54,814 nt of DNA from positions 1 to 54,814 of the IMG/VR virus record IMGVR_UViG_3300033146_000595. One strand, given 5' to 3'. This stretch comes from a virus. Lineage: Duplodnaviria; Caudoviricetes. Both the position numbers and the translations under genes were made by a program. Of this stretch, positions 7,491 through 49,493 are shown in pieces (position 1 is the stretch's first letter; each line of letters opens with the position of its first letter). Under the pieces are notes generated by a model, which saw nothing but the letters and a program-made list of their open reading frames with translations, did not search any database and was not told the DNA's origin.

Positions 7491-7518
7491 TTTATGATGA
7501 AAGATGGGGCCTTAACTA

Positions 7519-8283
7519 ATGAAAAGTAATGTGTTAAAAACGGTAAAACCATTCGTGGCCAAACACGAACCAGAACTATTAATGGTGATGGGAATAAGTG
7601 GAATGATATTCTCAGTAGCATGGGGTATCAAAGCTACTGGTAAGGCGATTAGAAAAATTGACTTACGGAAACAAGAGTTAAATAAGGATAAATTAACAAC
7701 GCGAGAGGTTATACAAACTACGTGGAAATTATATTTACCAGTTGTAATTAGTACGGCCGCTTCTATACCGTGTATAGTTGCGGGGAACAGAGTTTCTAAT
7801 AAGCGTAACATGGCGCTTGCCGCCGCGTATACGATGACAGAGACAGCTTTACAGGAGTACCAGGATAAAACGAAAGAAATCCTTGGTGAGAAGAAATATG
7901 AAAAATTACAAGAACAAGTATCAGAAGAGAAGGTTCGAAATACATACCAAGAGGGTATGAAGAACGTTACATTAATAGGAGATGGCGAAAGTCTATTCTA
8001 TGAACCTTTGTCAGGAAGATATTTTAAAACAAACTGGAATCGAATATCGAAGGCCGCTAATGAGTTAAACGCAGATGCGCTGGGTAGCATGTCTGGTGAA
8101 ATAACATTAAGTGAGTGGTATGATATTCTTGGTTTACCTGATACAGAGTTGTCAGATGAACGTGGATGGACGATAGCGAACGGTAAACAGGGCATAATTG
8201 ATATTTCAATAGATTCTGTCATATCGCCAGATAACCAACCATGTGGAGCAATACGGTACAATACAATGCCTAATAAATTTTAA
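7519..8283 (+). CDS. DUF6353-like paralog 2
   Basis: PELL..G...KAT.KA...WKLYLP...ALAAAY...LFYEPLSGRYF...ANELN...LSEWYDILG...GW. Confidence 0.7.
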   Translation: MKSNVLKTVKPFVAKHEPELLMVMGISGMIFSVAWGIKATGKAIRKIDLRKQELNKDKLTTREVIQTTWKLYLPVVISTAASIPCIVAGNRVSNKRNMALAAAYTMTETALQEYQDKTKEILGEKKYEKLQEQVSEEKVRNTYQEGMKNVTLIGDGESLFYEPLSGRYFKTNWNRISKAANELNADALGSMSGEITLSEWYDILGLPDTELSDERGWTIANGKQGIIDISIDSVISPDNQPCGAIRYNTMPNKF

Positions 8284-8411
8284 TTGATATTCCCTATTAT
8301 AGGTTGTGATACGCAGGGCATGTGTATCATGGAAAAAATAGTTCACATACGTCCTAGATCGCTAGCCGATGAGGTTTTAAATATGCGCAGCGAGGTGTGT
8401 GAGTATGTCCA

Positions 8412-8440
8412 CGCAGATTATACATGGCTTATAATGAGGG
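8412..8440 (+). promoter_or_regulatory. Phage-specific promoter motif, copy 7
   Basis: CGCA GATTA TACAT GGCTTA TAATGAGGG. Confidence 0.7.
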
Positions 8441-8482
8441 AAACCTCAGTTAAGAAAAAATAAGAAAAAAGGAGAATGAAAG

Positions 8483-8674
8483 ATGGAAAATTTAGGAACA
8501 GATGTTGTTGAAGTAGTTTCAGGAGATGTATGTACGATTCAAAAAGCTTCAAAAGTATTATTGCCAGTTGCGGCAGTAATAGGATTGGGTGTATTGGTTG
8601 TATCATTATTCAAAAGAAACAAAGCTAAAAAAACAGCAGCTCAAGCTGAAGAAGTAAATCCAGAAGTCGAATAA
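8483..8674 (+). CDS. Small single-pass membrane protein
   Basis: aaaggag RBS; central TM helix. Confidence 0.7.
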   Translation: MENLGTDVVEVVSGDVCTIQKASKVLLPVAAVIGLGVLVVSLFKRNKAKKTAAQAEEVNPEVE

Positions 8675-8695
8675 TTTATTAGATAACTGGGCCCG

Positions 8696-8738
8696 GAGAG
8701 ATAAGAACGATGTTTTAGAACATGGTTCTTTATCTTTT
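8696..8738 (+). terminator. Cassette-closing hairpin
   Basis: gagagataagaacgatgtt-ttag-aacatggttctttatctttt. Confidence 0.6.
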
Positions 8739-8768
8739 CAACTTAAAAAATACTGAAAAGGAGTAAGT

Positions 8769-9383
8769 ATGGAAAAATTCATAGGAAATTCAAATGCTGG
8801 TAAAAATAAACCAGTCACGGAACGTGAAAAACTACAAGCGATAACGAGTAATGTTTCGGTAAAAAAAGATTCCGAATTTAAGAAGTTTAAGAGAAACTTC
8901 TTTGCGGAGGACGCTAACACGGTAAAAGGACAGGTGTTTGCTAGCGTTATCATTCCAGGTATTCAACGACTTATTACCGACATGGTTAAAACGAGCATCG
9001 ATGTTTTAATTTACGGGGGTAGAAGTAGGGATAATAGGGATAGTAGAAGTGGTAACATTAGCTATAAGTCATATTACGATAGAAATAATAATAATCGTTC
9101 TGACTATAATAAAATACCATCATCAACATATAATAAAAATGTTTTTTCATTTAATGAAGTAGTGTTGTTTGATAGGGGCGAAACAGAGGAAGTGTTGTTA
9201 AGTCTTAATGAGCAAATAGATAAGTATGGTATGGTTTCTGTCGCTGATTTCTACGATATGGTAGGGCAAAGTGCACCATATACGGCTAATAAATATGGAT
9301 GGCGTGACCTTAGAGATGTTGGAATAGACCGAGTACGAGATGGATATTCTATTAATTTCCCTAAAGCATCGCCATTAGAATAA
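8769..9383 (+). CDS. Conserved phage protein of unknown function
   Basis: C-terminal YGMVSVADFYD..G....YTANKYGW.DL motif recognised from related siphophages; resembles the C-terminal motif of the DUF6353-like proteins. Confidence 0.7.
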   Translation: MEKFIGNSNAGKNKPVTEREKLQAITSNVSVKKDSEFKKFKRNFFAEDANTVKGQVFASVIIPGIQRLITDMVKTSIDVLIYGGRSRDNRDSRSGNISYKSYYDRNNNNRSDYNKIPSSTYNKNVFSFNEVVLFDRGETEEVLLSLNEQIDKYGMVSVADFYDMVGQSAPYTANKYGWRDLRDVGIDRVRDGYSINFPKASPLE

Positions 9384-9394
9384 TAGGAGGATAC

Positions 9395-10384
9395 ATGATG
9401 AATAATTTTGGAAGTGTGTTAAATAAATTTGGGTTCTGGACCAAGAGAAAATCTCCAGAGTTGTTGGTTGCAGGAGCAATTATAGCGGCCGCAGGTAGTA
9501 TCATATTGGCGGTTAAAGCCACGCCAAAAGCGGAAATAGTAGTGTCAAAAGCTAATAAAGAAATTAAAAGAATTAAAATCAATATGAACGATGGTAATCT
9601 TATAGGTAATAAAGAATACTCTGTTAGTTTAGGTAAAAAGGATTTAACTAGAGTTTATGCTAAAACATCATTGGAATTAGGTAAATTATATTTACCAGCA
9701 GCGATTGGATTTGGATTAACCGTTAGTGGTATTTTAGGTTCTCATAAAATCATGAGAGGTCGAAACGTCGCGTTAGCAGCTGCATACACTACACTCGATA
9801 ATGGTTATAAATCATACAGAGGTAGAGTAGCCACTAAGGTTGGTGAGAAGGTTGAGAATGATATTTTCAGAGATATTCATGGGGAGAAGAAAGAAATAAC
9901 TACCTTGGATAAAGATGGTAATGAAGTAACAAAGATGAAAACTGTAAAAGGACCACACGTTGCTGTGGATAGTGACTTTGCTGTGCTATATGATCAAAAC
10001 GCCAAAGAGTGGATTAAAGATACGAACATGGTTCTTAATTTATTAGCGATGAAGGAAAAGTACCTGAATCAAAAACTACAATATGCAGGATCACTATTCC
10101 TACATGAAGTGTATGATGAAATTGGTATTGATATTCATAGCCTTGGTGAGAAGAAGTCTCAAGCATCAAGAGTATTGGGATGGATTTACGACCCATCTGA
10201 TGATACAAGAGATAGTTACATTTCTTTAGGGTTATTCGATACTATGGGTAATCGTAATCAATATGCAATGAATGCATTAAGAAATAACGAACAAGAAATA
10301 TTCTTAGAGTTTAATGTTGATGGTGATATTCTTACTGGAAACAATGGTAATAAAACATTCACTAAGTTTAGAAAGGTGATCTAA
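9395..10384 (+). CDS. DUF6353-like paralog 3
   Basis: KSPELL...KATPKA...KLYLPA...RNVALAAAY...LFLHEVYD.IG...GWIY...LEFNVDG. Confidence 0.7.
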   Translation: MMNNFGSVLNKFGFWTKRKSPELLVAGAIIAAAGSIILAVKATPKAEIVVSKANKEIKRIKINMNDGNLIGNKEYSVSLGKKDLTRVYAKTSLELGKLYLPAAIGFGLTVSGILGSHKIMRGRNVALAAAYTTLDNGYKSYRGRVATKVGEKVENDIFRDIHGEKKEITTLDKDGNEVTKMKTVKGPHVAVDSDFAVLYDQNAKEWIKDTNMVLNLLAMKEKYLNQKLQYAGSLFLHEVYDEIGIDIHSLGEKKSQASRVLGWIYDPSDDTRDSYISLGLFDTMGNRNQYAMNALRNNEQEIFLEFNVDGDILTGNNGNKTFTKFRKVI

Positions 10385-11053: not shown

Positions 11054-11617
11054 ATGATTGAGTTACAAGAATTATATTCTGATTGGATGCGCAAATTTGT
11101 ATTTAAGAACGCACGAGAAAGAGAACAATATGGTTATCTTTTGGATGCGTTACACGCGTCCATGTTTTATTTCTCTATCCCCATGGATGAAAATCGTATG
11201 AGGGATGGCATTGATTTACGATATCGTTTCGCTTATGAAAACGGTTACGATAACCATGAAGTTGAAAATGCTCTTAATGTTACCAGTAGTTGTAGCATGC
11301 TTGAGATGATGATTGCTCTATCAATAAAGGGGGATGAACGTATACTATACGATTATGAAACCGGTGGGAGAGCCGATTATATTTTCATGACAATGTTGGA
11401 ATCACTAGAGTTTAATGATATGACCAACGATCGATTCGATCCTGGGTATGTTAATAGTAAGATAAATGGTGTGCTTAATCATGAGTATGATTACAATGGT
11501 TATGGTGGATTATTTGTTGTCAATAACCCTCGTAGAGACATGCGCGAGGTTGATATTTGGTATCAGATGAATTGGTACCTACAAACGCTGTACAATAAAA
11601 ATAAAAGGAGAATTTAG
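11054..11617 (+). CDS. Conserved hypothetical phage protein
   Basis: DENR..DG.DLR.RF...SMLEMMIAL...GGLF...IWYQMNWYL pattern; typically lies upstream of the polymerase. Confidence 0.75.
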   Translation: MIELQELYSDWMRKFVFKNAREREQYGYLLDALHASMFYFSIPMDENRMRDGIDLRYRFAYENGYDNHEVENALNVTSSCSMLEMMIALSIKGDERILYDYETGGRADYIFMTMLESLEFNDMTNDRFDPGYVNSKINGVLNHEYDYNGYGGLFVVNNPRRDMREVDIWYQMNWYLQTLYNKNKRRI

Positions 11618-11618
11618 A

Positions 11619-11795
11619 ATGTTTAGATTAATAGACAGACGCCCATTTATATCTGGGTTAATTATAGGATTCATTGGAACAAGAATGATTGGTAGGAAAT
11701 TACAAAAATTATTACCTAATGGAATAACAATTATTCAGATAGAACAAATCGATGAAACCCCTTCTGGAAAAGAAGAAATAAAAGAAGAAAATTAA
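11619..11795 (+). CDS. Small membrane protein (58 aa, not in ORF track)
   Basis: aaaggag RBS; MFRLIDRRPFISGLIIGFIG...KEEN*. Confidence 0.6.
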   Translation: MFRLIDRRPFISGLIIGFIGTRMIGRKLQKLLPNGITIIQIEQIDETPSGKEEIKEEN

Positions 11796-11808: not shown

Positions 11809-14800
11809 ATGCTTGATTTTCTGATAATTTCAACCAGAACCAGAAAAGGTGTTGTAGAAATATATCCGAAATTCAAAATTACAAGTAAAAGTAAAGATTT
11901 AATGATCCGAGGTGGTGATTTTTATGCCATATGGGTTGAACAAATTGGACTGTGGTCTACTAGCGAAGATGATGCATTAGTGTTAATCGACGGGTATTTA
12001 GATGAGTTTGCGCAAAAGAACAAACATCGTTTTGGGGAAGACAACGTGCGTATCATGTATATGTGGGACGCCGAAACCAATATGATAGATGTATGGCATA
12101 AGTATTGTCAAAAGCAATTGCGAACGAATTGGCGACAGTTAGATGAGAGATTGATATTTTTGAATCAAGCATCTACAAAAGAAGATTACGGAACAAAGAG
12201 ATTATCCTACTCGATCGACGATGAGGGTTCTAAAGATAGTTGGAACGAATTGATTTCAACATTGTATAAGGATAACGAACGTCATAAAATCGAATGGTGT
12301 ATTGGCGCTATACTTAGCGGTGAATCTAGATATATTCAGAAATTCGCCGTGTTGTATGGTCCGCCTGGTAGTGGTAAATCAACTCTTTTAAACGTTATTC
12401 AAGAGCTGTTTGACGGGTATACAAAAATGTTTGATGCGGAATCGTTAGGTTCATCAACGGATTCGTTTTCATTGGAACAATTTAAATCAAACCCGTTAGT
12501 GGCTATAAGTCATGACGGGGATTTATCGAGAATCGAAAATAATACAAAAATTAATAGTCTAGTTTCTCATGAGAAAATGGTTGTTAACGAAAAGCACAAA
12601 TCAATATATGAGATGAGATTTATTTCATTTCTATTCATGGGGACTAATCGTCCTGTAAAGATTACAAATGCTAAGTCTGGTTTACTACGTAGACTGATTG
12701 ATATTTACCCATCTGGCACTCATATACCATTGGCTAGATACAACAGACTTATTAGTCAAACCAAGTTTGAACTTGGTGCAATAGCGTTTCATTGTCTTAG
12801 TGTGTATGAAAATAATAAACATGCTTATGACGACTATCGACCAACGTTGATGATAAGTGAGTCAAACGACTTCTTTAACTTCGTATCAGATAGCTACATT
12901 ATATTTAAAAAGGACAACAGTGTAACATTAAAAACTGCTTGGGAAATGTATAAACTTTATTGCGATTCAGCTAGGGTGCCATATCCAATGTCAATGAGAG
13001 TATTCAAAAATGAATTAAGAAACTATTTTAAAGGGTATGAAGAACGTTATAGAACTCCTAAAGGAGATTATGTACGATCTTATTACTTTGATTTCAGGAA
13101 TGATATTTTCGACATAAAGGATAAGCCAATAAAACCAAGAAAAAAGAAAAGCAAAGATACATTTGAGTTGATTAATTTTGGTAAGAACAAATCTAAATTA
13201 GATACAATATGCGAAGATTGCCCAGCACAATATGGGAGTAGATCAGGAACACCTACTAAAAAGTGGGATGACTGTGATACAACGTTGAAAGACCTGGATA
13301 CTGGAAGACTGCATTACATTAGAGTTCCAGACAACCATATAGTTATTGATTTTGATATTCAGGATGAACATGGTGATAAAGATTTCAAAAAGAATTTAGA
13401 AGAGGCTAGTAAATGGCCTAAGACATACTCGGAAGTTAGTAAATCTGGTGGTGGTATACATCTTCATTATATTTATGATGGTGACCCAACCAAACTAAGT
13501 AGAGTGTATGCGGATAATATTGAAGTGAAAGTGTTCACAGGGAATAGTTCTCTTAGAAGACAAGTAACAAAATGTAATACGGAAGACATTAGCAAAATTA
13601 ATTCAGGTTTACCGTTAAGGGAGGTTGGTCGAGTGATAAACTTTGAAAGTGTTAAAAGTGAGAAAGCAATACGCTCACTAATTAGAAATAATCTCAACAA
13701 GCAGTATCACTCAGGAACAAAACCATCTATCGACTTTATATTTAAAATATTAGAAGATGCGTATAAGAGTGGACTTAAATATGATGTGAACGATTTACAT
13801 GGTATAGTATTGGCCTTTGCCGCGAGTAGCTCGAACCAAGCCGATTATTGTATAAAGTTGGTTCCGAAAATGAAATTTAAATCGAGTGAAGCTTCAGATA
13901 ATTTAGCGAACGAGGATAAACCAATAGCATTTTATGATGTAGAAGTATTCCCCAACTTGTTTATTGTTAACTGGAAGTTGCAGGGTGTAGGAAGACCAAT
14001 GAATAGGTTGATTAATCCTAACCCACATGAGATAGAGATGCTTCTTAAATACAGACTCGTTGGCTTCAATTGTAGACGTTATGATAACCATATATTATAT
14101 GGGGCATTGATTGGATATTCTAACATTAAGATTTATGAACTTAGTCAAAAGATTATTCATGGTAAGAAAGCAATGTTCAATGAAGCATGGAACATAAGTT
14201 ATACAGACGTGTATGATTATTCAAGAGAAAAAATGTCATTGAAGAAATGGCAAATTAAATTAAGAATCAAACATAAAGAACTTGGTTTACCTTGGGATCA
14301 ACCTGTTCCAGAAGAGAAATGGATCGAGGTCGCCGAGTATTGTGACAACGATGTTATAGCCACAGAAGCAGTGTTCGATTATACTGCTGGTGATTTCAGA
14401 GCTAGACAGATGCTTGTTGCGATGACGAAGGCATTACGAGGTATAAATGTTTGCGTAAACGATACAACTAATAGTATCACTACTAAAATGATATTTGGTA
14501 ATGATAGGAAACCACAATTAAATTATGTGGACTTATCTAAGGAATTTCCTGGGTATGAATTCGTTAAGACTTGGAATGACAAGACTCAGCGTTATGACAA
14601 GTTTAATATGTATCGTGGAGTAGACCTTAAGTTTGGAGGATATGTATACGCCGAACCAGGTATGTATACGGATGTCGGTTTAATGGACGTCACAAGTATG
14701 CATCCTAATTCAGCTATCATAATGAACTATTTTGGTAAGTATACATCCATCTTTGAATCTATAGTAAAAGCCAGAGTTTATATTAAGGATGGTAATTTGG

Positions 14801-15660
14801 AAATGGCGAAGGAATTATTTAATGGTGTCCTGAAACCATTCTTAGACGATCCATCAATGTCGGATGATACAGCGAACGCGCTTAAGATCGCTATTAATTC
14901 CGTATATGGATTAACATCAGCAAGATTTAATAACCCATTTAAAGACCCACAAAACGAAAATAACATTGTTGCATTGCGTGGAGCGTTGTTTATGAAAACC
15001 TTACAAGATGCATTGGTTGATATGGGGGTTCAAGTAATACACATTAAAACGGACTCGGTTAAGATTCCTAATATTACGCCTGAAATCGTAGAGTTCTGTC
15101 ACAAGTTTGCCGCCAAGTACAAGTATGAATTTAATCATGAGGCAACGTACGATCGCATATGCTTGGTTAACGACGCGGTTTATATTGCTAAGTTAGATAA
15201 ACATGGTATACGAAACAAAGGTGGAAAAAGGGCAAATGAATGGACTGCGACTGGTACACAGTTCAAAGTTCCGTACGTATTCAAAACGTTATTCAGTCAT
15301 GAGAAAGTATTATTGGATGATTTATCTGAGGTTAAACAAGTTAAATCCGCTATTTACTTGAATATGAACGAAAAAGACGGAGTGGAAAACCTACAATTCA
15401 TCGGACGTGTGGGTAATTTTAGCCCTGTTCTTCCGGGTAAAGGCGGTGGTATGTTAGTTAAGCCTGTTAAGAAAAAGGATGAGACGGTAGCGTACGACGC
15501 TGTAACCGGAACTAAAGGATTTAGATGGTTAGAAGCAGAGATGATTCAAGAATTAGATATGAGAGATGCAATTGATATTTCCTATTATACTAGAATGGTT
15601 GATGTAGCGGTTACTTCCATTAGTAAGTTTGGAGATTTCGAATGGTTTACAAGTGATTAA
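11809..15660 (+). CDS. Multifunctional replicase: SF3 helicase + AEP-type primase + 3'-5' exonuclease + family B DNA polymerase
   Basis: Walker A GPPGSGKST and FMGTN (SF3); VIDFD and SKSGGGIHLHY (prim-pol); FYDVEVF, GFNCRRYD, YCDND (Exo I-III); DVTSMHP, KIAINSVYG, IKTDS (PolB A-C). Confidence 0.85.
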   Translation: MLDFLIISTRTRKGVVEIYPKFKITSKSKDLMIRGGDFYAIWVEQIGLWSTSEDDALVLIDGYLDEFAQKNKHRFGEDNVRIMYMWDAETNMIDVWHKYCQKQLRTNWRQLDERLIFLNQASTKEDYGTKRLSYSIDDEGSKDSWNELISTLYKDNERHKIEWCIGAILSGESRYIQKFAVLYGPPGSGKSTLLNVIQELFDGYTKMFDAESLGSSTDSFSLEQFKSNPLVAISHDGDLSRIENNTKINSLVSHEKMVVNEKHKSIYEMRFISFLFMGTNRPVKITNAKSGLLRRLIDIYPSGTHIPLARYNRLISQTKFELGAIAFHCLSVYENNKHAYDDYRPTLMISESNDFFNFVSDSYIIFKKDNSVTLKTAWEMYKLYCDSARVPYPMSMRVFKNELRNYFKGYEERYRTPKGDYVRSYYFDFRNDIFDIKDKPIKPRKKKSKDTFELINFGKNKSKLDTICEDCPAQYGSRSGTPTKKWDDCDTTLKDLDTGRLHYIRVPDNHIVIDFDIQDEHGDKDFKKNLEEASKWPKTYSEVSKSGGGIHLHYIYDGDPTKLSRVYADNIEVKVFTGNSSLRRQVTKCNTEDISKINSGLPLREVGRVINFESVKSEKAIRSLIRNNLNKQYHSGTKPSIDFIFKILEDAYKSGLKYDVNDLHGIVLAFAASSSNQADYCIKLVPKMKFKSSEASDNLANEDKPIAFYDVEVFPNLFIVNWKLQGVGRPMNRLINPNPHEIEMLLKYRLVGFNCRRYDNHILYGALIGYSNIKIYELSQKIIHGKKAMFNEAWNISYTDVYDYSREKMSLKKWQIKLRIKHKELGLPWDQPVPEEKWIEVAEYCDNDVIATEAVFDYTAGDFRARQMLVAMTKALRGINVCVNDTTNSITTKMIFGNDRKPQLNYVDLSKEFPGYEFVKTWNDKTQRYDKFNMYRGVDLKFGGYVYAEPGMYTDVGLMDVTSMHPNSAIIMNYFGKYTSIFESIVKARVYIKDGNLEMAKELFNGVLKPFLDDPSMSDDTANALKIAINSVYGLTSARFNNPFKDPQNENNIVALRGALFMKTLQDALVDMGVQVIHIKTDSVKIPNITPEIVEFCHKFAAKYKYEFNHEATYDRICLVNDAVYIAKLDKHGIRNKGGKRANEWTATGTQFKVPYVFKTLFSHEKVLLDDLSEVKQVKSAIYLNMNEKDGVENLQFIGRVGNFSPVLPGKGGGMLVKPVKKKDETVAYDAVTGTKGFRWLEAEMIQELDMRDAIDISYYTRMVDVAVTSISKFGDFEWFTSD

Positions 15661-21161: not shown

Positions 21162-21206
21162 GTTTAGTAAAAACTTAAGCGTGTTTGCGCAAAAAAAGGA
21201 GAACTT

Positions 21207-21716
21207 ATGAGTAATATGAGTGAATTAGATATAGAAAGACAAGAAGCAAAGAGAGTAAGAGCGTATATAGCTAATGATATTCGAGTAGCAAGAGAAGTAT
21301 TCATTATGCAATTATGCTTAGCGTTATATGAAGAACAAGAAACTAATATAGAATTCGGAGTAACTAATTTTAGAGAGGTTATTAACGAATTCATTAAAGG
21401 TGATTCAGCAGACACATTAACTTTGGATGGAAAAATATTCTCATCCTACCTGGAAGACATCGCGTATGATGTGGGTGGCCCAGATGGAGATGATACGGCA
21501 TGCGTGTTCACGATGGTTGGGGACACGCCTCAAATCTATCCGATGAAAATGTATACGGTAACGTATGATATTAATGTGGTTCCATTAATCGTTGCTAAAG
21601 TTAGACGTGCTCAAAAATGGAAACGAGTTTCAACATTCATCGAGGCGACTAGTTTCAAAGAAGCTCGAGAAGTATTTAAAGCGGAATTCAAGAAGAATAA
21701 TTCAGATAGAAATTAA
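21207..21716 (+). CDS. Hypothetical protein
   Basis: aaaggag RBS, 169 aa. Confidence 0.7.
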   Translation: MSNMSELDIERQEAKRVRAYIANDIRVAREVFIMQLCLALYEEQETNIEFGVTNFREVINEFIKGDSADTLTLDGKIFSSYLEDIAYDVGGPDGDDTACVFTMVGDTPQIYPMKMYTVTYDINVVPLIVAKVRRAQKWKRVSTFIEATSFKEAREVFKAEFKKNNSDRN

Positions 21717-23647: not shown

Positions 23648-24278
23648 TGAACATAAGAAATTAGAAGGACAACACGCTTTCTTAGGCGCGAGTACATACC
23701 ATTGGTTAAGATGGGATGAGGATACGCTTGAGAAAAGATACTATGGTAGATATTCAAAAACTATAGGAACGGCACTTCACGAGTTAGCGGCAGATTTAAT
23801 AAGTAACAAAATTAAATTGGCAAAGAGTGATAAGAAAATAATTATCATAACACTCACTAAACTAATGATACCAAGAGGTGCGTATGATCCAGAAGAAATA
23901 TTAAACAATCTAATGTCATTCGTTAATGATGCTATTGGATTTAGAATGGCTGCCGAGGTAATATTATTTTACTCACACAGTTGTTTTGGCACAACAGATA
24001 CTATAGTATTCGATGAATTCAATAAGATTCTAAGGATACACGATTATAAATCAGGAATCACACCATCCAAAATGGACCAGTTAATGATTTATGCTGCCCT
24101 ATTTTGTTTGGAGTATAAAAAGAATCCATTCGATTTTGAAACGGAATTACGAATATACCAAAACGGGGAAGTAATGATATTTACCCCAGAACCAACAGAG
24201 ATCGAAGGTGTAATGAATTTAATAGTTTTTAAAAATAAATCAATTTTAAAATTTTTAGAAAGGGAGTATAGAAGATGA
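23637..24278 (+). CDS. PD-(D/E)xK exonuclease (RecB/Cas4-like) (start moved to ATG 23637)
   Basis: GTALHE...E...FGTTD...IHDYKSG...QLMIYA. Confidence 0.75.
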   Translation: MIFNEHKKLEGQHAFLGASTYHWLRWDEDTLEKRYYGRYSKTIGTALHELAADLISNKIKLAKSDKKIIIITLTKLMIPRGAYDPEEILNNLMSFVNDAIGFRMAAEVILFYSHSCFGTTDTIVFDEFNKILRIHDYKSGITPSKMDQLMIYAALFCLEYKKNPFDFETELRIYQNGEVMIFTPEPTEIEGVMNLIVFKNKSILKFLEREYRR

Positions 24279-27238
24279 GTCATGACATAAATGATTTAAC
24301 TGATGAAGAATACTTACTTCACTATGGTACTCCCAGACATTCGGGTAGATATCCTTGGGGTAGTGGTGAAGAACCATTCCAAAGAAGTGGTGATTTTTTA
24401 AGTAGAATAGACGACCTAAAAAAACAAGGTATGACCCCAACACAAATAGGCGAATCATTGGGTATTAAAACAACTCGTCTTAGAGCATTGGAGACAATAG
24501 CAAAGAATATTAGAAGAAAAGATCTATATTCCAAAGCTAAAACACTAAAGGAAGAAGGATTTAGTAATGTTCAAATTGCTGATAGACTCGGTCTTCGTGG
24601 GGAATCATCTGTTAGATCGTTATTAAACGCCGACTCATTGGCTAGGATGGCGATAGCAGATGACTTAACAAACACATTACGTGAATTAATTGACACGCGT
24701 GGTATGATTGATATTGGTGCTGGTGTACCTAGACAATTGGGTGTATCTAAAGAAAAAATGGATGTTGCCATAGAGATGTTAAAAAATGAAGGTTATGTGG
24801 TACATGGGAACAGAGTCCCACAAGTTACAAACATTGGTAAACTAACAACACTAAAAGTTATATGTCCTCCAGGCACACCATCATCCGCTATATATAATTA
24901 CGGGGATATTAAATCGGTATATGATGTGACATCATTCGATGGTGGTAAAACATTAAAACCAGCGTTTCGATATCCCGCTAGTCTAGATTCAAACAGGATA
25001 CAAATTAGATATGCAGAAGAAGGCGGTACTGAAAAAGATGGGGTTATAGAGTTAAGAAGAGGTGTGGATGATATTTCATTAGGCACATCAAACTATTCAC
25101 AGGTGCGTATATTAGTTGATGGAACACATTATTTAAAAGGTATGGCCGTTTATTCGGATAACATGCCAGATGGTGTAGATGTTATATTTAACACTAATAA
25201 AAAATCAAATGTTTCTAAAATGGACACTATGAAAAAAATAAAAGATGACCCATTGAATCCATTCGGTTCCACTATTAAAGAAAGAGGTGGACAATCAGAA
25301 TGGACTGATGAAAATGGTGTTGTGAGGTTGACCGTAATAAATAAGAGATCTGATGAAGGTGATTGGGGTAATTGGTCAAGGGAGATATCGGCTCAATTTC
25401 TATCAAAACAACCACAAAAGTTAATAGATAGACAGATTGATATTTCAATAAAAGCGAAAGTAGCCGAATTTGATGAAATTATGTCACTAACAAACCCAAC
25501 GGTCAAGAAAGCGTTATTAGAATCGTTCGCTGACGAATGTGACGCAGCCGCGGTTAGTTTGAAAGCTGCTGGATTACCAGGAGCTATGTATAAAGTTATA
25601 TTACCAGTGACATCACTAAAGGATAACGAAGTATATGCACCCCATCTAGATGATGGTTCCATGGTCGCACTAGTTAGGTATCCTCATGGTGGTACATTTG
25701 AGATACCAACACTAACGGTTAATAATAGGAACAAAGAGGCTATTAACATAATGACAAAAAACGCAACCGACGCGATAGGTATTAACGCGGTCGTAGCTGA
25801 TATTATGTCAGGAGCAGACTTTGATGGTGATACCGTAATGGTAATACCAATGAGTGATAGAATAAAAATTAAATCACAAAACCCACTAAAGGATTTAAAA
25901 GGGTTTGATACCATATTAGCATATGGACCAGATGAAACACACGTTGATTCTGATGGTAATGAGAGATACTATAGAGGTGGGAAAGAGTTTGCAATACTAA
26001 GTGAAACAAACACCCAAAATCAAATGGGTATCATATCAAATTTAATTACAGATATGACGTTACTTGGGGCTCCCAATGATGAATTAGCTAGAGCAGTTAA
26101 ACATTCAATGGTTATCATAGATGCTAATAAACATGGACTAGACTATAAGCAGTCTGAAGCAGATAATGGTATAAAGGCATTACATAAGAAGTACCAGACA
26201 CAAGTCGGTCCATCGGGTAAGATACATGGTGGAGCAGCTACATTAATATCTAAATCTAAGTCAAAAGCACCAGTTGGTGAAAGAAAGTTGGGTATGTATG
26301 TACATAAAGACACACTCAACGAACTAACACTGTTTGATGCTGATAATAAAATCTATTTAGATGAGAAGACTGGTCGTTTCTATACCGATAAAGAAAAGAG
26401 AACCATATACATTGATCGAAAGACTGGTGAGAAGCTATATACGTACACTAATCGGGAGTATATGCAGACGGCATATAAGAATGCTGCTGGAAAAACAAAA
26501 AAAGCATCGGTTATAGTTAAGGATGAGAAACTTTATTACAAAGGTGAAGATGGTACGTATAAAGAGATCACGAATGAAATAATTAAATCGATACCCGCCC
26601 TCACGTACTCAAAGAAGATGGCCGAAACCAACGATGCACACACACTATCATCAGGTACACCACAAGAAGAGGCTTATGCTGAGTATGCCAATCAACTTAA
26701 AGCACTTGGTAACCTTGCTAGACTTGAAACATTAACTATCACTAGTACACCTATGTCTAAGTCCGCTAAGGCGGCATACATAGAAGAGTATAAAACCCTT
26801 GTATTTAAGATAGATGAGGCATTACTCAATGCTCCAAGAGAAAGACAAGCACAAACAATGGCCGCATCAATTGTGCAATTGAGAAAACAAGAGAATCTTC
26901 GCATGACTCATGAGGAAGAGAGAAAGATTAGACAACAAGAGCTAAGTAGGGCCCGTATGCGTGCTGGTGCATCAAGAAAGATGATAGAAATCACACAAAA
27001 TGAATGGAATGCTATACAAGCGGGTGCTATAAGTACTCATAGATTAAAACAAATTATTGCTAATGCAAACATGGACATACTTAGACAGTTCGCAATGCCT
27101 AGAGCAAGATTAACATTGAGTCCTGCAAAACTAAGAAGAATAGAGAACATGTCGAGGTCTGGTTATACTACGGCCGAGATAGCTAAAGCATTAGGTGTAT
27201 CAGTTAGTACTGTATCTAAGACATTGAGAGGAGAATAA
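24275..27238 (+). CDS. Single-subunit two-barrel RNA polymerase (YonO/RdRP-like) with terminal HTH domains
   Basis: GADFDGD (25811-25831), VRYP, QVR..GTHYLKG, MGIISNL, LARAVKHSMVIIDANKHG in the order found in QDE-1-type RdRPs; HTHs at both ends. Confidence 0.8.
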   Translation: MSHDINDLTDEEYLLHYGTPRHSGRYPWGSGEEPFQRSGDFLSRIDDLKKQGMTPTQIGESLGIKTTRLRALETIAKNIRRKDLYSKAKTLKEEGFSNVQIADRLGLRGESSVRSLLNADSLARMAIADDLTNTLRELIDTRGMIDIGAGVPRQLGVSKEKMDVAIEMLKNEGYVVHGNRVPQVTNIGKLTTLKVICPPGTPSSAIYNYGDIKSVYDVTSFDGGKTLKPAFRYPASLDSNRIQIRYAEEGGTEKDGVIELRRGVDDISLGTSNYSQVRILVDGTHYLKGMAVYSDNMPDGVDVIFNTNKKSNVSKMDTMKKIKDDPLNPFGSTIKERGGQSEWTDENGVVRLTVINKRSDEGDWGNWSREISAQFLSKQPQKLIDRQIDISIKAKVAEFDEIMSLTNPTVKKALLESFADECDAAAVSLKAAGLPGAMYKVILPVTSLKDNEVYAPHLDDGSMVALVRYPHGGTFEIPTLTVNNRNKEAINIMTKNATDAIGINAVVADIMSGADFDGDTVMVIPMSDRIKIKSQNPLKDLKGFDTILAYGPDETHVDSDGNERYYRGGKEFAILSETNTQNQMGIISNLITDMTLLGAPNDELARAVKHSMVIIDANKHGLDYKQSEADNGIKALHKKYQTQVGPSGKIHGGAATLISKSKSKAPVGERKLGMYVHKDTLNELTLFDADNKIYLDEKTGRFYTDKEKRTIYIDRKTGEKLYTYTNREYMQTAYKNAAGKTKKASVIVKDEKLYYKGEDGTYKEITNEIIKSIPALTYSKKMAETNDAHTLSSGTPQEEAYAEYANQLKALGNLARLETLTITSTPMSKSAKAAYIEEYKTLVFKIDEALLNAPRERQAQTMAASIVQLRKQENLRMTHEEERKIRQQELSRARMRAGASRKMIEITQNEWNAIQAGAISTHRLKQIIANANMDILRQFAMPRARLTLSPAKLRRIENMSRSGYTTAEIAKALGVSVSTVSKTLRGE

Positions 27239-27239
27239 G

Positions 27240-27524
27240 ATGATGAATACTAATAAAGCATTACGCCTTACAACAGTAGACAACCCTTATGATCCATTTA
27301 CTCATTGGAAAGAATGGCTGCTATTTGATACAAATGCAGGATACCATACCTGTTCTAGATTGGCAAGAGTCACGTACATTAGTGATGCGTTCACTGAACC
27401 AGAGATATATGAACGTATTGAAGAAGGAATGGACGTGTTGATCACTACTGGGTCTCTGTCTAAAGATGGATCCCTAATAGAATACAAAAAGGTAATAAAA
27501 GAAACCAACATTGCTAAACAATAG
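27240..27524 (+). CDS. Conserved hypothetical protein downstream of the RNAP
   Basis: LTTVDNPYDPF...W..FD...GYHT...LAR motif. Confidence 0.75.
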   Translation: MMNTNKALRLTTVDNPYDPFTHWKEWLLFDTNAGYHTCSRLARVTYISDAFTEPEIYERIEEGMDVLITTGSLSKDGSLIEYKKVIKETNIAKQ

Positions 27525-27660
27525 TTTAGTTAAACAAACGAAATAAACAATAAGATACACAAATTGGTACACAATTAGATCAAAAGACACATCAAACTGT
27601 GTTAAACAGTCAATGATTGTCACACAATACAATGATGTGCTGTTGGACGCACATGTCTGG

Positions 27661-27740
27661 CACCCGTAGGGGGGTCTCTCAAAATATACACCCCCCTCAG
27701 CATCGCCCCGCTCTTAAAAATTCCTCCGGGGGTAAAATTT
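27661..27740. other. Putative cos site / physical genome end
   Basis: GC-rich island (gggggg...cccccc...catcgccccgctct aaaaa ttcctccggggg) between the last early gene and the TerS-like/HNH genes. Confidence 0.55.
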
Positions 27741-27753
27741 GGGTAGGGTTTTA

Positions 27754-27885
27754 CTTTAAGTATCTAGTCAGGTGCATGGGCATTTGACATTATAAAGGAT
27801 TTTCTTCTTTCTAAGTTCTCCTTTCCTTCTAAAATCTATTAAGATAGTGCGCAGATGTTCTGTGTATCTGACTAGATACTTAAAG
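27754..27885 (+). ncRNA. Long RNA hairpin with anti-Shine-Dalgarno apical loop
   Basis: 18-bp perfect basal stem extended by pairs whose mismatches are G-U on the + strand; pyrimidine loop contains ttctccttt. Confidence 0.6.
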
Positions 27886-27910
27886 AAACTATACCGAAAG
27901 GAGGGGTATC

Positions 27911-28270
27911 ATGCCTCAAAGTAAGAGACAAGGAAGTGCGGTTAAAAGTAGCAATGCTATTAAGACCATGCGTCCAGCGTTAACACCAGAGGCTGATGAA
28001 CAACAACTTATTTCGTTAGCCACAGATGTTGCTAGGGAACAATTGTTGAATGGAACAGCCTCTTCTCAAGTGTTAACACACTTCTTAGTTTTAGGGTCTA
28101 GTAAAAAAAGACTCGAGAGTGAGATTATGGAATTACAAAAAGATTTATTAGTTGCTAAGACAGAAGCCATACGATCTACAAAAACGATTGAAGAATTATA
28201 CAGCAAAGCTATTCAAGCAATGCGAGTGTACTCTGGGCATGATGATGGTGGGGATGAATATGAGAAATAA
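27911..28270 (+). CDS. Putative terminase small subunit
   Basis: First gene after the putative cos, before HNH; RPALTPEA.EQQLISLA...GTASSQVLTHFL; call is mostly positional. Confidence 0.5.
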   Translation: MPQSKRQGSAVKSSNAIKTMRPALTPEADEQQLISLATDVAREQLLNGTASSQVLTHFLVLGSSKKRLESEIMELQKDLLVAKTEAIRSTKTIEELYSKAIQAMRVYSGHDDGGDEYEK

Positions 28271-28685
28271 CATTAAAACATACTCCGACCTAATGCAATT
28301 AGAAACGTATGAGGAAAAATTTGACTACTTAACATTAAATGGTGCTGTCGGAGAAGACACGTTCGGTTTTGATAGGTATTTAAATCAACAACTTTATAAA
28401 TCAAAAGAATGGAAGATGGTAAGAGACATCGTTATAATGAGAGACAATGGGTGTGATCTTGGATGTGATGGATATGACATTTTTGGAACGATATACGTAC
28501 ATCATATGAATCCTCTATCACCTGATGATTTTACGAACTCGTCGGAATACTTACTAAATCCAGAATATTTAATATGTGTGACATTGGATACACATAATGC
28601 AATTCATTACGGAACGAATGATTACGTAAATAAAAATAGGATAGTGACAAGGGAAGCTAATGATCACTGTCCTTGGAGAAACTAA
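28260..28685 (+). CDS. HNH endonuclease (packaging-associated) (start moved to ATG 28260)
   Basis: RDNGCDLG...VHHMNP...LICV...THNAIH. Confidence 0.85.
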   Translation: MRNNIKTYSDLMQLETYEEKFDYLTLNGAVGEDTFGFDRYLNQQLYKSKEWKMVRDIVIMRDNGCDLGCDGYDIFGTIYVHHMNPLSPDDFTNSSEYLLNPEYLICVTLDTHNAIHYGTNDYVNKNRIVTREANDHCPWRN

Positions 28686-28702
28686 AAAAAGGAGAAATTA
28701 AA

Positions 28703-29137
28703 ATGGAACTAGATAATAATGTATTAAAAGAAGAAGTAAAAGAAGAAATAAAAGAAGAAATAAAAGAAGAAATAAAAGAAGAAATAAAAGAGAAAAAAAC
28801 AGCGGTGGTTAAAAAACCGGAGCCTAAGAAAAAACCAGCTCCTAAGAAAAAACCAGCACCTAAGAAAAAAGTAGTAAGGGAAAAACAACCACATGAGGAT
28901 GTTGTCCCAATTAAACCCGTTACACCAAAAAAACTAGGTGTGAAGACTGGCCATGTCACTAATTGTAATGCTTTAAGATTACGAGAAGGGGCTAATATTA
29001 GAACTAGTATATTGGCAACTATGCCAAAAGACTCAAAAGTGGAAGTTAATCTGGATAACTCAACGGAATCTTTTTATGAAGTAGTATATAAAGATTTGAT
29101 CGGATTTTGTGTTAAAAAGTTTATTGACATAGGTTAA
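28703..29137 (+). CDS. SH3b-domain protein with low-complexity N-terminus (start moved to ATG 28703)
   Basis: (KEEI)n and (PKKKPA)n repeats, then GHVTNCNALRLRE...FYEV...GFCVKKFI. Confidence 0.7.
   Translation: MELDNNVLKEEVKEEIKEEIKEEIKEEIKEKKTAVVKKPEPKKKPAPKKKPAPKKKVVREKQPHEDVVPIKPVTPKKLGVKTGHVTNCNALRLREGANIRTSILATMPKDSKVEVNLDNSTESFYEVVYKDLIGFCVKKFIDIG
28726..28870 (+). repeat. 12-bp and 18-bp coding tandem repeats
   Basis: aaagaagaaata x~5; cctaagaaaaaaccagc x2-3. Confidence 0.85.
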
Positions 29138-30567: not shown

Positions 30568-32313
30568 ATGGCGTTATCTAATACTGCAACACCTATATAT
30601 TATGGTGAGTTTAGAGAAGCCGTAGTTAGAGGTGATATACCAGTATGTAGAGAAATCTCTATGGAGATGAATCGAATTGATGATTTAATCAAAAATCCAG
30701 GTATATACTATGATGATTTAGCAATAAACGGTTTTATCGAATATTGTGAAAAAGAATTAACCCTTACCGATGGATCTGATTTAAAAATGTTAGACACGTT
30801 TAAGTTGTGGTCAGAACAAGTATTAAGTTGGTTTTATTATGTGGAACGGAGTATATATGTAAAAGATGAAAGTGATAAACACGGCCACTATATAAAAAAG
30901 ATGATAAAGAAAAGATTGATTAACAAGCAATACTTAATAGTATCAAGGGGTGCCGCGAAGTCGATGTACGCATCAGTACTTCAAAGCTATTTTTTAAACA
31001 TAGACCCTAGTACGACATATCAAATAACCACTGCTCCAACCATGAAGCAGGCTGATGAAGTAATGTCTCCGATAAAAACAGCGATAACGAGAGCCAAAGG
31101 CCCTTTATTTCAGTTTTTAACAGAAGGATCTTTGCAGAACACAACTGGTTCAAAAGCTAATAGAGTTAAACTAGCCTCTACTAAAAGGGGTATCGAAAAC
31201 TTCCTTACTGGTTCTATCTTAGAGATAAGACCTATGAAGATTGACAAATTACAAGGATTAAGATGTAAAGTCGCTTCTATTGATGAGTGGTTATCGGGCG
31301 ATGTTAGAGAAGATGTTGTTGGAGCAATTGAACAAGGTGCTTCTAAAGTTGATGACTATTTGATAATAGCCGTATCATCTGAGGGTACTGTTCGTAATGG
31401 TTCTGGAGATACTATAAAGATGGAATTATTAGACATTCTAAAAGGGGAGTATGTTAACCCCCATGTTTCAATATTTTACTACAGATTGGATAGCGTTGAG
31501 GAAGTTGGAAACCCTGATATGTGGATTAAAGCTAATCCTAATTTAGGTAAAACAGTTTCTTACGAAACTTATCAATTGGATGTAGAAAGAGCTGAAAAAG
31601 CTCCCGCTGTTAGAAATGACATCTTGGCAAAAAGGTTTGGGATACCGATGGAGGGGTTTACTTATTACTTTACGTATGAGGAAACACTACCGCATCCTAA
31701 AAAGTCTTTTTGGGGGTTACCATGTGCACTTGGTGTGGATTTATCTCAAGGGGATGACTTCTGTGCATTCACATTCCTGTTCCCACTTCAAAATGGTGAA
31801 TTTGGTGTGAAAACTAGAAGTTACATAACAGACTTTACTTTATTAAAGTTGCCAACGGCAATGCGTTTTAAGTATGACGAATTCATGAGAGAAGGGTCGC
31901 TCGTTGTGCACGAAGGTGCTATACTCGATATGATCCAAGTCTATGAGGATTTAGACGAACATATAATAAAAGAAGAGTATGATGTAAGATGTCTTGGGTT
32001 TGACCCATATAACGCAAAAGATTTTATCGAAAGATGGCAATTAGAAAACGGTCCTTATGGGATTGTTAAAGTAATACAAGGAGCAAAAAGCGAATCGGTT
32101 CCTTTAGGAGAATTGAAAAATTTAGCAGAGGAAAGATTATTATTATTTGATGAAGACTTAATGACGTTTGCTATGGGTAACGCTATAACATTAGAAGACA
32201 CTAATGGGAATAGAAAACTTTATAAAAAACGTAGAGAAGCAAAGATTGACAATGTCGCAGCTTTAATGGACGCGTTCATTGCATATAAATTAAATAAGGA
32301 GGCGTTCGAATGA
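30568..32313 (+). CDS. terL: Terminase large subunit
   Basis: Walker A VSRGAAKS, Walker B ASIDE, coupling SSEG, nuclease GVDLS, FDPYN, KIDNVAALMDA. Confidence 0.92.
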   Translation: MALSNTATPIYYGEFREAVVRGDIPVCREISMEMNRIDDLIKNPGIYYDDLAINGFIEYCEKELTLTDGSDLKMLDTFKLWSEQVLSWFYYVERSIYVKDESDKHGHYIKKMIKKRLINKQYLIVSRGAAKSMYASVLQSYFLNIDPSTTYQITTAPTMKQADEVMSPIKTAITRAKGPLFQFLTEGSLQNTTGSKANRVKLASTKRGIENFLTGSILEIRPMKIDKLQGLRCKVASIDEWLSGDVREDVVGAIEQGASKVDDYLIIAVSSEGTVRNGSGDTIKMELLDILKGEYVNPHVSIFYYRLDSVEEVGNPDMWIKANPNLGKTVSYETYQLDVERAEKAPAVRNDILAKRFGIPMEGFTYYFTYEETLPHPKKSFWGLPCALGVDLSQGDDFCAFTFLFPLQNGEFGVKTRSYITDFTLLKLPTAMRFKYDEFMREGSLVVHEGAILDMIQVYEDLDEHIIKEEYDVRCLGFDPYNAKDFIERWQLENGPYGIVKVIQGAKSESVPLGELKNLAEERLLLFDEDLMTFAMGNAITLEDTNGNRKLYKKRREAKIDNVAALMDAFIAYKLNKEAFE

Positions 32314-34566: not shown

Positions 34567-36403
34567 ACAATGGGACTTTAAAGGTTGGGCCACAAGACAT
34601 AATGTGTTGTGTGGTGACGGACGCACCATTAAACCAGGCGCATTCGAACACAACGATAATCAAACAGTACCTTTAGTTTGGAATCACAACCATAAAGACG
34701 CCGATAATGTATTAGGACACGCATTATTAGAGTATAGAGATGAAGGAGTATATGCTTACGCAAAATTCAACGACACTAGTCAAGGACGAAATGCAAAAGA
34801 ATTAGTGCGTAATAAAGATATAACAGCTTTATCAATATACGCTAATAAATTAAAACATAACATCAAAGATGTAATTCATGGTAACATTAGAGAATTAAGT
34901 CTTGTTTTAGCGGGATCAAATCCTGGTGCATATATCGAAACGGTTATGGCGCATGGTGAAGGTGATGATAGATCTGAAGAAGCTATTATTACAAACAATG
35001 CAGAGTTAGAATTACTTCACACTGGAACTGAAAAAGAACTTAGTGAAGAAGCAAAAACGGCATTAGCTATTAAAGAAGCAGCGAATCTTAAGCATGCAGA
35101 AGAATTAAAAGTTGCAAAAGAAGCAGCGGATCTTAAACATGCCGAGGAAGAAAAACAAAAAGAAGTAGATGCTAAAAAACAAAAAGAAATAGACGATAAG
35201 AAACCTAAGAAAAAATCCGAGGAGGAAAAGAAGAAAATGAAAGATAAAACAATAAAAGAAGTCTTTGAAACATTAGACGACGACCAAAAATTAATGGTGT
35301 ACGCGCTTGTAGGTGCGGCACAAGAAGGGGACAACAGTATGAAACAAAATTTATTTGACAAAGAAATCGATAATGAAGACGAGTTCTTAACTCACGCGGA
35401 ATTTGAAACAGCATTAACAGAAGCAAAACGTAATGGGTCTTTAAAGGAAGCGTTTATCGCACATAGTATCAGTAATATTAATAACTTATTCCCAGAAGTA
35501 CAAAATTTAAACAAACAACCTGAGTTAATCTCAAGAGATGTTCAATGGGTTGCTGGAGTTATGGCTGGGGTATCAAAATCACCATTCTCAAGAGTTAAAT
35601 CAACAGGTGCTAACCTTACTGCTGATGAAGCAAGAGCAAAAGGGTATGTTAAAGGCGCACAAAAAGTTGAAGAAGTTATTACATCTTTAAAACGTGTAAC
35701 TACGCCTACAACTGTTTACAAATTACAAAAATTAGACCGTGATGATGTAATCGATATCACTGATTTCGATGTAATCGTATTCATGAAATCTGAAATGAGA
35801 ATTATGTTAAACGAAGAATTAGCAAGAGCATTCTTAATTGGTGATGGACGTTCAGGAGCAAGTCCTGATAAAGTAAACCCATTAAACATTCGCCCAATCT
35901 GGGGAGACGATCCAGTTTATACTGTGGTTCGTGAATTAGTTCCAGCGGCGGAAGATACAGCAGCTCAAAAAGCTAAAGCATTTATTCAAGACATCATCCG
36001 TTCGAGAAAATTATACAAAGGTTCAGGAAATCCTGCATTATACACTACGGAAGATCAATTAGTGGAAATGTTATTAATGGAAGACACTAATGGTAGAGTG
36101 ATTTATGACTCAGTTGCTAAATTGCAAACTGCTTTACGTGTAAGTAAAATAGTAACAGTTGAAGTAATGGAAGGTGTAAACCGTGTTATTTCAGAGGATC
36201 AATGGGACTTAATGGGCATTCTTGTAAACTTAACTGATTACAATGTTGGTGCTGATAAAGGCGGACAAGTAAACATGTTTGATGATTTCGATCTTAACTT
36301 TAATAAATACGAGTACTTAATTGAAACTCGTTGTTCTGGAGCTTTAAAGAAACCTTATAGTGCAGTTGTATTTGAATCTAAAGGCCCAGTAGTAGCAGGT
36401 TAA
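34559..36403 (+). CDS. Prohead protease-scaffold-major capsid fusion protein
   Basis: N-terminal HK97-type protease (FKGWA, PLVWNH, LSI, ELSLV..GSNPGA), charged linker, C-terminal capsid domain (ELARAFLIGDG...ETRCSG). Confidence 0.88.
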   Translation: MSKQWDFKGWATRHNVLCGDGRTIKPGAFEHNDNQTVPLVWNHNHKDADNVLGHALLEYRDEGVYAYAKFNDTSQGRNAKELVRNKDITALSIYANKLKHNIKDVIHGNIRELSLVLAGSNPGAYIETVMAHGEGDDRSEEAIITNNAELELLHTGTEKELSEEAKTALAIKEAANLKHAEELKVAKEAADLKHAEEEKQKEVDAKKQKEIDDKKPKKKSEEEKKKMKDKTIKEVFETLDDDQKLMVYALVGAAQEGDNSMKQNLFDKEIDNEDEFLTHAEFETALTEAKRNGSLKEAFIAHSISNINNLFPEVQNLNKQPELISRDVQWVAGVMAGVSKSPFSRVKSTGANLTADEARAKGYVKGAQKVEEVITSLKRVTTPTTVYKLQKLDRDDVIDITDFDVIVFMKSEMRIMLNEELARAFLIGDGRSGASPDKVNPLNIRPIWGDDPVYTVVRELVPAAEDTAAQKAKAFIQDIIRSRKLYKGSGNPALYTTEDQLVEMLLMEDTNGRVIYDSVAKLQTALRVSKIVTVEVMEGVNRVISEDQWDLMGILVNLTDYNVGADKGGQVNMFDDFDLNFNKYEYLIETRCSGALKKPYSAVVFESKGPVVAG

Positions 36404-37998: not shown

Positions 37999-38032
37999 AA
38001 AAAATTAAACTAAAAAAAGGAGAAATTAGAAA

Positions 38033-49470: not shown

Positions 49471-49493
49471 AAACAAAAAAGGAGAATTTAGAA

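Follow-up and report, generated by a model that had tools for sequence, protein, structure and literature searches.

Regulators that act on translation start regions are known from several phages and bacteria. The c4 antisense RNA of phages P1 and P7 is a structured operon-leader RNA whose loops pair with a ribosome-binding region and control translation; its one target lies downstream in the same operon, and RNase P excises the RNA. In Firmicutes, the hairpins of RsaE/RoxS and RNAIII expose CUCC or UCCC loops that pair with the Shine-Dalgarno regions of several mRNAs. Phage T4 relies on proteins, the repressor RegA and the endonuclease RegB, which shut down earlier phage genes at their translation start regions. 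The early mRNAs of T7 and SP82 carry RNase III processing hairpins in the form of long intercistronic or leader stems, and we know of no such hairpin with an invariant loop complementary to gene starts.

The mycobacteriophages of Cluster K offer a further point of comparison. Their start-associated sequences (SAS), as described in the main text of the 2011 report, form a motif longer than the Shine-Dalgarno core and lie a few bases 5' of the start codons of many genes, often of different families, almost all in one orientation (Pope et al., 2011; PMC3203893). The same text notes a lone copy in the opposite orientation, away from gene starts, and proposes 'RNA or protein' as the binder (Pope et al., 2011). 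In the main text of a 2024 paper on Adephagia and a 2025 comparative paper the role of the SAS is still called unknown (PMC11373665, PMC12699233), and no mention of an antisense hairpin for the SAS was found in the searched text of these three papers.

The DNA analysed here (the window, 54,814 b) is one complete IMG/VR virus record with 36% G+C and a CheckV completeness estimate of 91%, and its + strand carries all of the tiling ORFs. Judged by its sequence, the phage is a 1706/Rima-like siphophage, and its large terminase (30568-32313) is 77-78% identical to the terminases of Streptomyces Rimavirus phages. A 987-aa homologue of RdRP/YonO-like RNA polymerases is encoded at 24275-27238 (+ strand), as the second-to-last gene before cos. 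This protein matches phrog_4291 ('RNA-dependent RNA polymerase') with E = 0 and PF05183 weakly (E 0.008, below the Pfam cut-off), its C-terminus holds a sigma-region-4-like helix-turn-helix (from matches to helix-turn-helix families), and a search of solved structures returned chance matches alone (E > 0.5). With tblastn it reaches 250 phage records, including phages of Arthrobacter, Gordonia and Streptomyces, Lactococcus phage 1706, Faecalibacterium phages and others. In the available text of a preprint, the RdRP-like protein is a signature of an actinophage/Firmicute-phage group (Koert et al., 10.1101/842583), and no mention of a hairpin, inverted repeat or non-coding RNA was found in that text. 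Elsewhere in the window, a 1283-aa protein (11809-15660) contains DUF5906 and probably corresponds to GP55, the 'four-in-one' replicase of phage 1706 (available text of PMC12205980).

Gene 1 (27911-28270, + strand; phrog_4259) is the first gene of the structural module, with its Shine-Dalgarno sequence GAAAGGAGGGG and ATG read in the sequence at 27896-27913 (+ strand). It is followed by genes for an HNH nuclease, an SH3-domain protein, a connector protein and the large terminase, and by further ORFs of the head/tail region. The block from gene 1 on is the structural and lysis block, which from its gene content would presumably be expressed late. Phage Rima has the same end layout, with the RdRP-like protein and a small ORF last, then the genome end, then the homologue of 27911-28270. 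Nucleotide searches of the hairpin region against 50,697 phage records, in near and distant modes, gave no match, after which relatives were reached through protein searches: thirteen came from a search with the gene-1 protein, and a profile search with gene-1 proteins brought at least 558 from IMG/VR, from which 80 loci were kept. Among public sequencing runs, only three, of DNA or unknown type, contained 4-6% of the sampled words, and no RNA run was listed.

The cos region (27669-27712, + strand) has six consecutive G at 27669-27674 and six consecutive C at 27691-27696, and GCATCGCCCCGCT comes next. The G6...C6 box with GCATCGCCCCGCC lies just 5' of the homologue of 27713 and is kept in those relatives whose contigs run through. 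The contigs of nine of the thirteen gene-1 relatives end 160-320 nt upstream of gene 1, and because the contigs of several relatives begin exactly at the homologue of 27713 (CTTAAAAATTCC...), we infer that this position is the left physical end of the virion DNA, a predicted cohesive end. The end-proximal box that starts there (CTTAAAAATTCCTCCGGGGGTAAAA; 27713-27737, + strand) forms the contig start of L006, L009, L011, L014 and L015 and is also found in Streptomyces phage Rima; the conserved CTTAAAAATTCCTCCGGGGG at the predicted left end is common even to this high-G+C phage, which has it twice. The box probably serves terminase/HNH recognition. Between the last gene and cos, at 27510-27628, there are three direct repeats of ATTGnnACACAAT, exactly 53 nt apart, which may be terminase or cos accessory sites.

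The element of interest begins ~25-40 nt inside 27713, on the gene 1 side of cos, and has its 3' end at the gene 1 Shine-Dalgarno sequence; an earlier note on this DNA had likewise put it between a putative cos site and the first late gene. That note had reported a ~130-nt RNA hairpin at 27754-27885, and the hairpin is real: its MFE is -50.7 kcal/mol (z -8.58), shuffles of the same segment average -22.9 ± 3.2 kcal/mol, and 0 of 200 fold as well. These limits of the core hairpin on the + strand rest on the fold, the shuffles and conservation among 12 sequences. The reported 18-bp perfect base (27754-27771 with 27868-27885) is entirely Watson-Crick, and the G-U wobbles and one bulge described beyond it are also present. 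Among the 20 inverted repeats in the window with arms up to 200 nt apart it is the longest, and it is single-copy. A fold of 27713-27925 (MFE -72.5 kcal/mol, z -6.4) extends the core to a rod-like leader hairpin at 27738-27899 (+ strand), the 3' foot of which stops inside the GAAA of the gene 1 Shine-Dalgarno sequence. The core is predicted to form a helix of ~33 pairs, a number that rises in the extended hairpin, below an apical region of ~65 nt, and as modelled would offer RNase III the double-stranded helix of at least ~20 bp that defines its substrates.

Several familiar identities were considered for this hairpin. A search of Rfam, which the earlier note had proposed, found no family that matches it at gathering score; the Rfam 15 covariance models gave 0 such matches in the whole window, and the best sub-threshold match in 26500-29000 was to a plant microRNA model (21.9 bits, threshold 230). 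An intrinsic terminator is ruled out, as the hairpin is followed 3' by AAACTATACC instead of a U-run, and no + strand terminator was called in 26900-28400. A sigma-70 scan of the same interval gave 4 promoter-like sites, with 5.1 expected, none usefully placed. A miniature inverted-repeat transposable element is rejected because the window has just one copy of the hairpin and all relatives have it at one fixed locus.

Close homologues were collected by scanning viral and metagenome collections, the window included, with a 20-mer of the loop, which gave 12 distinct homologues in addition to five chance matches and one fold-back chimera. Metagenome contig L030 folds back at the hairpin and has the gene 1 start reverse-complemented beside the 5' arm, probably because the palindrome misled the assembly. 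The loop is invariant in 12/12 close homologues and is part of a near-invariant, pyrimidine-rich apical block of ~39 nt (AAAGGATTTTCTTCTTTCTAAGTTCTCCTTTCCTTCTAA; 27794-27832, + strand; columns 40-78 of alignment A1). The stem is kept, with compensatory changes, in all 12: the outer stem is conserved, while in the middle stem the sequence varies and pairing is kept. The earlier note had named an unconserved stem or anti-Shine-Dalgarno loop as grounds against itself, and at the sequence level neither is seen. In an alignment fitted with a covariance model, 85.7% of cells are paired versus 32-48% with the partners slid, a control that is given because the refit leans towards structure. Eleven pairs are changed on both sides, compared with 6.3 ± 1.6 in shuffles, of which 3 in 500 reach 11. 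RNAalifold detects little covariation in a plain MAFFT alignment, because this misaligned the variable middle stem.

The wobble pairs bear on which strand, and which nucleic acid, has been under selection. Among the non-Watson-Crick cells of the 12 homologues, 53 are G-U and 25 are A-C, which favours the + strand and fits the earlier note's suggestion of selection on RNA, and 11 of the 12 fold more stably as + strand than as - strand. More distant relatives (L014-L017 and phage 1706) have a hairpin of the same size in the same place with unrelated stem sequences. We examined 88 leaders (78 new loci, eight earlier ones including Rima, and the leader of the window for the duplex comparison only), and CTCCTT lies between complementary arms in 72 of them. 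A long, plus-strand-biased hairpin occupies the same place in more than 60 diverse relatives, the cultured Lactococcus phage 1706 among them. The + strand duplex is the more stable one in 56 of 64 distinct strong leaders, and over these 64 the G-U pairs number 621 versus 405 (Wilcoxon p 5e-10, which overstates independence because the leader sequences are related, and is not an exact probability). In Rima, the only relative of high G+C that was looked at, the hairpin is short and CTCCTT is confined to the end box. The leader hairpin of Lactococcus phage 1706 (L133:32-178) bears three small loops with CCUCCUU, UUCUCCUUU and CUCCCUC.

The core of the loop (TCTCCTTTC; 27817-27825, + strand) is, by its sequence, the exact complement of the Shine-Dalgarno consensus used by these phages, GAAAGGAGA. 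In 61 non-redundant leaders CTCCTT is present in 46, with 2.4 expected after shuffling, and the 9-mer UCUCCUUUC / TCTCCTTTC in 38; AAGGAG is present in 4 and the complementary 9-mer GAAAGGAGA in 0. On the + strand of the window CTCCTTT occurs once, in the loop, versus 25 occurrences of AAAGGAG, and ten further genomes have TCTCCTTTC 0-3 times and GAAAGGAGA 2-21 times on the sense strand. A minus-strand gene start within the loop was considered and rejected, as no start codon follows the minus-strand ribosome site. Opening the segment 27807-27824 is predicted to cost 2.1 kcal/mol. Against a pairing role, UCCUUU (27819-27824) is partly paired with AAAGGA in the MFE fold, with P(unpaired) of 0.2-0.4.

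The exactness of the Shine-Dalgarno complement is hard to reconcile with a purely DNA-level role, for instance that the hairpin, extruded from DNA, is the late promoter of the RdRP/YonO-like polymerase in the style of the N4 virion RNA polymerase. There is one conserved motif per genome, placed just 5' of the late block in a family whose signature is a polymerase, as such a promoter would be. The N4 promoters have, on the template strand, a stem of 5-7 bp and a loop of 3 nt, and the present stems of 33-60 bp (at least 33 pairs in the window) and loops of 14-100 nt (an apical region of ~65 nt in the window) are unlike them; the wobble bias is on the + strand, the non-template strand for rightward transcription. 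Nor does a promoter predict that the loop should complement the Shine-Dalgarno sequence or that its flanks should follow start regions. Even with the promoter of YonO still undefined in the available text of PMC5467207, we regard this explanation as very improbable.

Complementarity extends beyond the core. The segment 27807-27824 (+ strand) is complementary to AAAGGAGAAYTTAGAAAG and is, as the earlier note stated, the reverse complement of AAAGGAGAACTTAGAAAG. This pattern, with up to 3 mismatches, matches 6 times in the window (0.12 expected; 0 of 100 shuffles reach 6). Five of the matches lie at + strand gene starts (6592, 11604, 28688, 38016 and 49478), and the sixth, on the - strand, is the loop itself. 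The pairing runs quoted in the earlier note were all reproduced. The best candidate target is the start of the first DUF6353 gene (6609-7490, GTG start), where the run covers 18 nt with one G-U (6592-6609, + strand). Others, likewise on the + strand, are the start regions of a 120-aa gene (49478-49494, 17 nt), a 58-aa ORF (11604-11619, 16 nt) and a 128-aa gene (38016-38032, 17 nt with one mismatch), in addition to 13 nt at 21195-21207. Predicted net interaction energies in the window, opening included, are -19.0 kcal/mol for 6609, -17.1 for 49494, -16.8 for 11619 and -12.2 for 38033. For host mRNAs, which had also been suggested as targets, support is limited to generic Shine-Dalgarno complementarity.

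Two relatives, G001 and G002, show the same arrangement. A search for AAAGGAGAAYTTAGAAA with up to 2 mismatches found 11 sense copies and 1 reverse copy in G001 and 7 and 1 in G002, with 0 matches to the backwards pattern in either; in both, as in the window, the single reverse copy is the hairpin loop. Start regions with complementary runs of at least 15 nt number 3 in the window (16-18 nt), 6 in G001 and 5 in G002 (15-19 nt in the relatives). One orthologous group alone, the first DUF6353 paralogue, carries the motif in all 3 genomes. Its start in G001 pairs with the loop over 27 nt with 2 mismatches, and the predicted start-loop duplexes have energies of -40.1 (G001), -34.9 (G002) and -30.6 kcal/mol (window). 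This start region is identical at 22-23 of 27 positions between genomes, versus a mean of ~15 ± 5 in other orthologues, and the first DUF6353 proteins themselves are ~50% identical between the 3 genomes. By simple duplex energy gene 6609 ranks only third in the window, which counts against the antisense explanation preferred below.

The DUF6353 locus has features of its own. The window has three paralogous genes (6609, 7519 and 9395, within 6609-10384; Pfam DUF6353), and the first protein has, by eye, a hydrophobic N-terminus. By tblastn such paralogues, mostly three, are present in 13 of 15 genomes, with none in G004 and with G011 left out. An intrinsic-terminator-like hairpin with a T-run (6553-6590, + strand) lies directly 5' of the 6609 start region, and a terminator-like hairpin precedes the DUF6353 gene in G001 and G002 too, with differing stem sequences. 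In G005, the sense strand at ~34760-34830, before the first DUF6353 paralogue, looks tRNA-like by eye, with GGTTCAAATCC as T-arm.

The loop and the start sites have also changed together between clades. The start patterns are TTAGAAAGGAGAATAAA in G007 and G010 (runs up to 22 nt), AAAGGAGAAATAAATAT in G013 (up to 20 nt), ACATTTGAAAGGAGAA in G015 (up to 17 nt) and CTGAAAGGAGAAAA in G012 (a run of 18 nt), and each complements the loop flanks of its own genome. When 16 contiguous pairs are required and G-U is accepted, a genome's own loop gives a mean of 2.67 matches and other loops give 0.52. For nine clade representatives the diagonal sum at this threshold is 21, which 86 of 362,880 column permutations reach (29 of 362,880 are as good at a threshold of 15), and reversed-loop controls give 0-1 matches. 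Across these nine clades the loop flanks track the start-site consensus of each clade, with G009, G012 and G014 ambiguous in the comparison. Extended own-loop matches were absent from 5 of 14 other genomes tested (G003-G006 and G008), and co-variation was negative in G003-G005, their DUF6353 genes included. By an anchored score of spacer complementarity the own loop came first in 7 of 12 genomes, with small effect sizes. Within the close clade no compensatory change between loop and target can be scored, because the loop is invariant there.

The repeated start motif invites another reading, in which it is a recombination linker or a preferred strong ribosome site and the loop goes back to an ancient inverted copy of a gene start that was retained for some other structural purpose, such as packaging (cosB-like) or DNA bending. 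Apart from DUF6353, the motif-bearing genes are mostly accessory or non-orthologous between genomes, so the motif could reflect cassette exchange rather than regulation, and in an unrelated metagenome contig, L029, the loop 20-mer is a genuine gene start, read from the opposite strand. The hairpin also stands at the place which we take to correspond to lambda cosB, but there is already another box, kept even in Rima, that would suit terminase recognition. A relic would not readily explain a loop that is invariant in 12 homologues when the gene 1 protein is only 61-78% identical in 8 of them, nor a 9-mer that 38 of 61 diverse leaders share, and always on the same strand; the G-U bias indicates RNA, and the loop and start-site flanks changed together between clades. 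We hold a by-product of this kind to be distinctly unlikely. The Shine-Dalgarno match, conservation on one strand, wobble bias and co-variation between clades argue against both this and the DNA-level reading.

Closer to hand is a purely cis-acting leader, a 5' stabiliser and/or RNase III site of the late mRNA that governs how gene 1 is translated. The foot of the stem lies within the GAAA of the gene 1 Shine-Dalgarno sequence, the 33-60 bp helices are shaped like RNase III substrates, the strand bias fits an RNA, and the MFE folds of L016 and L017 pair the end-proximal CUCC box with the gene 1 Shine-Dalgarno sequence. From the geometry, the intact stem would put the loop ~50 bp from that sequence, and the loop should be unable to reach it because few nucleotides are unpaired between the stem foot and the core; the two would meet solely in an alternative fold, for example after cleavage or transcription from an internal start. 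Gene 1's GAAAGGAGGGG, moreover, matches the loop over 8 nt only, and a cis role leaves unexplained why the loop flanks follow the clade consensus start and not gene 1's own start. We consider a leader acting only in cis unlikely, though less so than the other two alternatives.

Our preferred, and still tentative, explanation is that the structured plus-strand leader RNA is an antisense regulator of translation start sites. As would be expected of the seed of a trans-acting antisense small RNA, the loop is predicted to be accessible, is complementary to its candidate targets, and is conserved or co-varies with them. The leader RNA of the structural/lysis block would be transcribed from the plus strand, and its long, near-perfect stem would present the pyrimidine-rich loop, possibly after RNase III had cut the stem and freed the loop-bearing top as a small RNA. 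The loop could then pair with start regions bearing the extended motif, that of the first DUF6353 gene (6609) above all, and the pairing would block 30S binding or make a duplex cleavable by RNase III. One RNA may in this way tune a regulon of mostly non-structural genes, the likely effect being repression late in infection. Motif-bearing starts are, however, only weakly enriched in the second (non-structural) half, where 36 of the 46 lie, versus 550 of the remaining 876 (odds ratio 2.1, p 0.04). Besides this weakness, it counts against the antisense-regulator explanation that a generic anti-Shine-Dalgarno RNA would strike the phage's own late genes too.

An antisense, anti-Shine-Dalgarno regulatory RNA is a kind already known, and what is new is the unusual setting; a literature search aimed at the leader hairpin found nothing relevant. 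The leader hairpin is unrelated to c4 in sequence, its stem is far longer, and its candidate targets are several and lie at scattered sites. RsaE/RoxS and RNAIII are independent chromosomal genes with terminators of their own, whereas here the loop belongs to a leader hairpin without a U-tract. The effectors in T4 are the proteins RegA and RegB, and the effector proposed here is an RNA. The SPbeta leader before yonK (L141:9153-9310, minus strand), at the head of the late operon that YonO transcribes, has an inverted repeat of 16 nt, CAATAATCTCCTTCGG / CCGAAGGAGCTTATTG, whose arms lie 87 nt from each other and flank CAUCUCCUUUAU, with CUCCUU segments in the repeat; its fold (z -1.8) is not statistically distinct and its motif counts are at chance, and the resemblance is a hint only.

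The SAS of Cluster K bear a closer likeness. The window motif, too, has a Shine-Dalgarno core just 5' of starts (5 sense copies in the window, 11 in G001 and 7 in G002) and one orientation, with a single reverse copy off gene starts in each of the three genomes. The differences are that the SAS consensus, GGGATAGGAGCCC, is unlike the window's AAAGGAGAAYTTAGAAAG and belongs to the Cluster K lineage, whereas the relatives of the window are 1706/Rima-like, and that the reverse copy in Adephagia lies near the right end and not in a first-gene leader. Mycobacterium phage Adephagia (JF704105) carries the SAS 16 times in sense and once in reverse. The reverse copy (58682-58694) falls in the 432 non-coding nucleotides that separate genes 92 and 93, ~1 kb short of the right end. 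There the reverse SAS forms the 10-nt apical loop, CCUCCUAUCC, of a strong forward-strand hairpin at 58660-58715 (L135:8660-8715); a 241-nt fold around it has z = -4.8. The hairpin region is conserved in 131 Cluster K records. All six Cluster K phages that were aligned retain the hairpin; one compensatory pair and several G-U pairs are seen among them, and the exact loop CCUCCUAUCC is found in 4 of the 6, DarthP having a variant and SirPhilip a different loop. Taken from these sequences, it is possible, if rather doubtful, that some phages mark a subset of genes with an extended motif and run it as one regulon through the antisense loop of an end-encoded hairpin, an arrangement that the 1706-like phages of low-G+C hosts and the Cluster K mycobacteriophages would have evolved separately.

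What gives this element more than average interest is its wide distribution, the chance to test it in a cultured phage, and its bearing on the open question of the SAS. It is conserved across a very large, mostly uncultured group of phages, given the at least 558 IMG/VR relatives of the adjacent gene, and the dairy phage 1706, which belongs to the group, is cultured and open to testing at the bench. If the idea of a hairpin-run regulon is true, the logic of an anti-start RNA would account for the SAS, the role of which has been open since 2011. Should the loop regulate start sites, the leader hairpin would be an RNA counterpart of the protein-based shut-off of early genes in T4.
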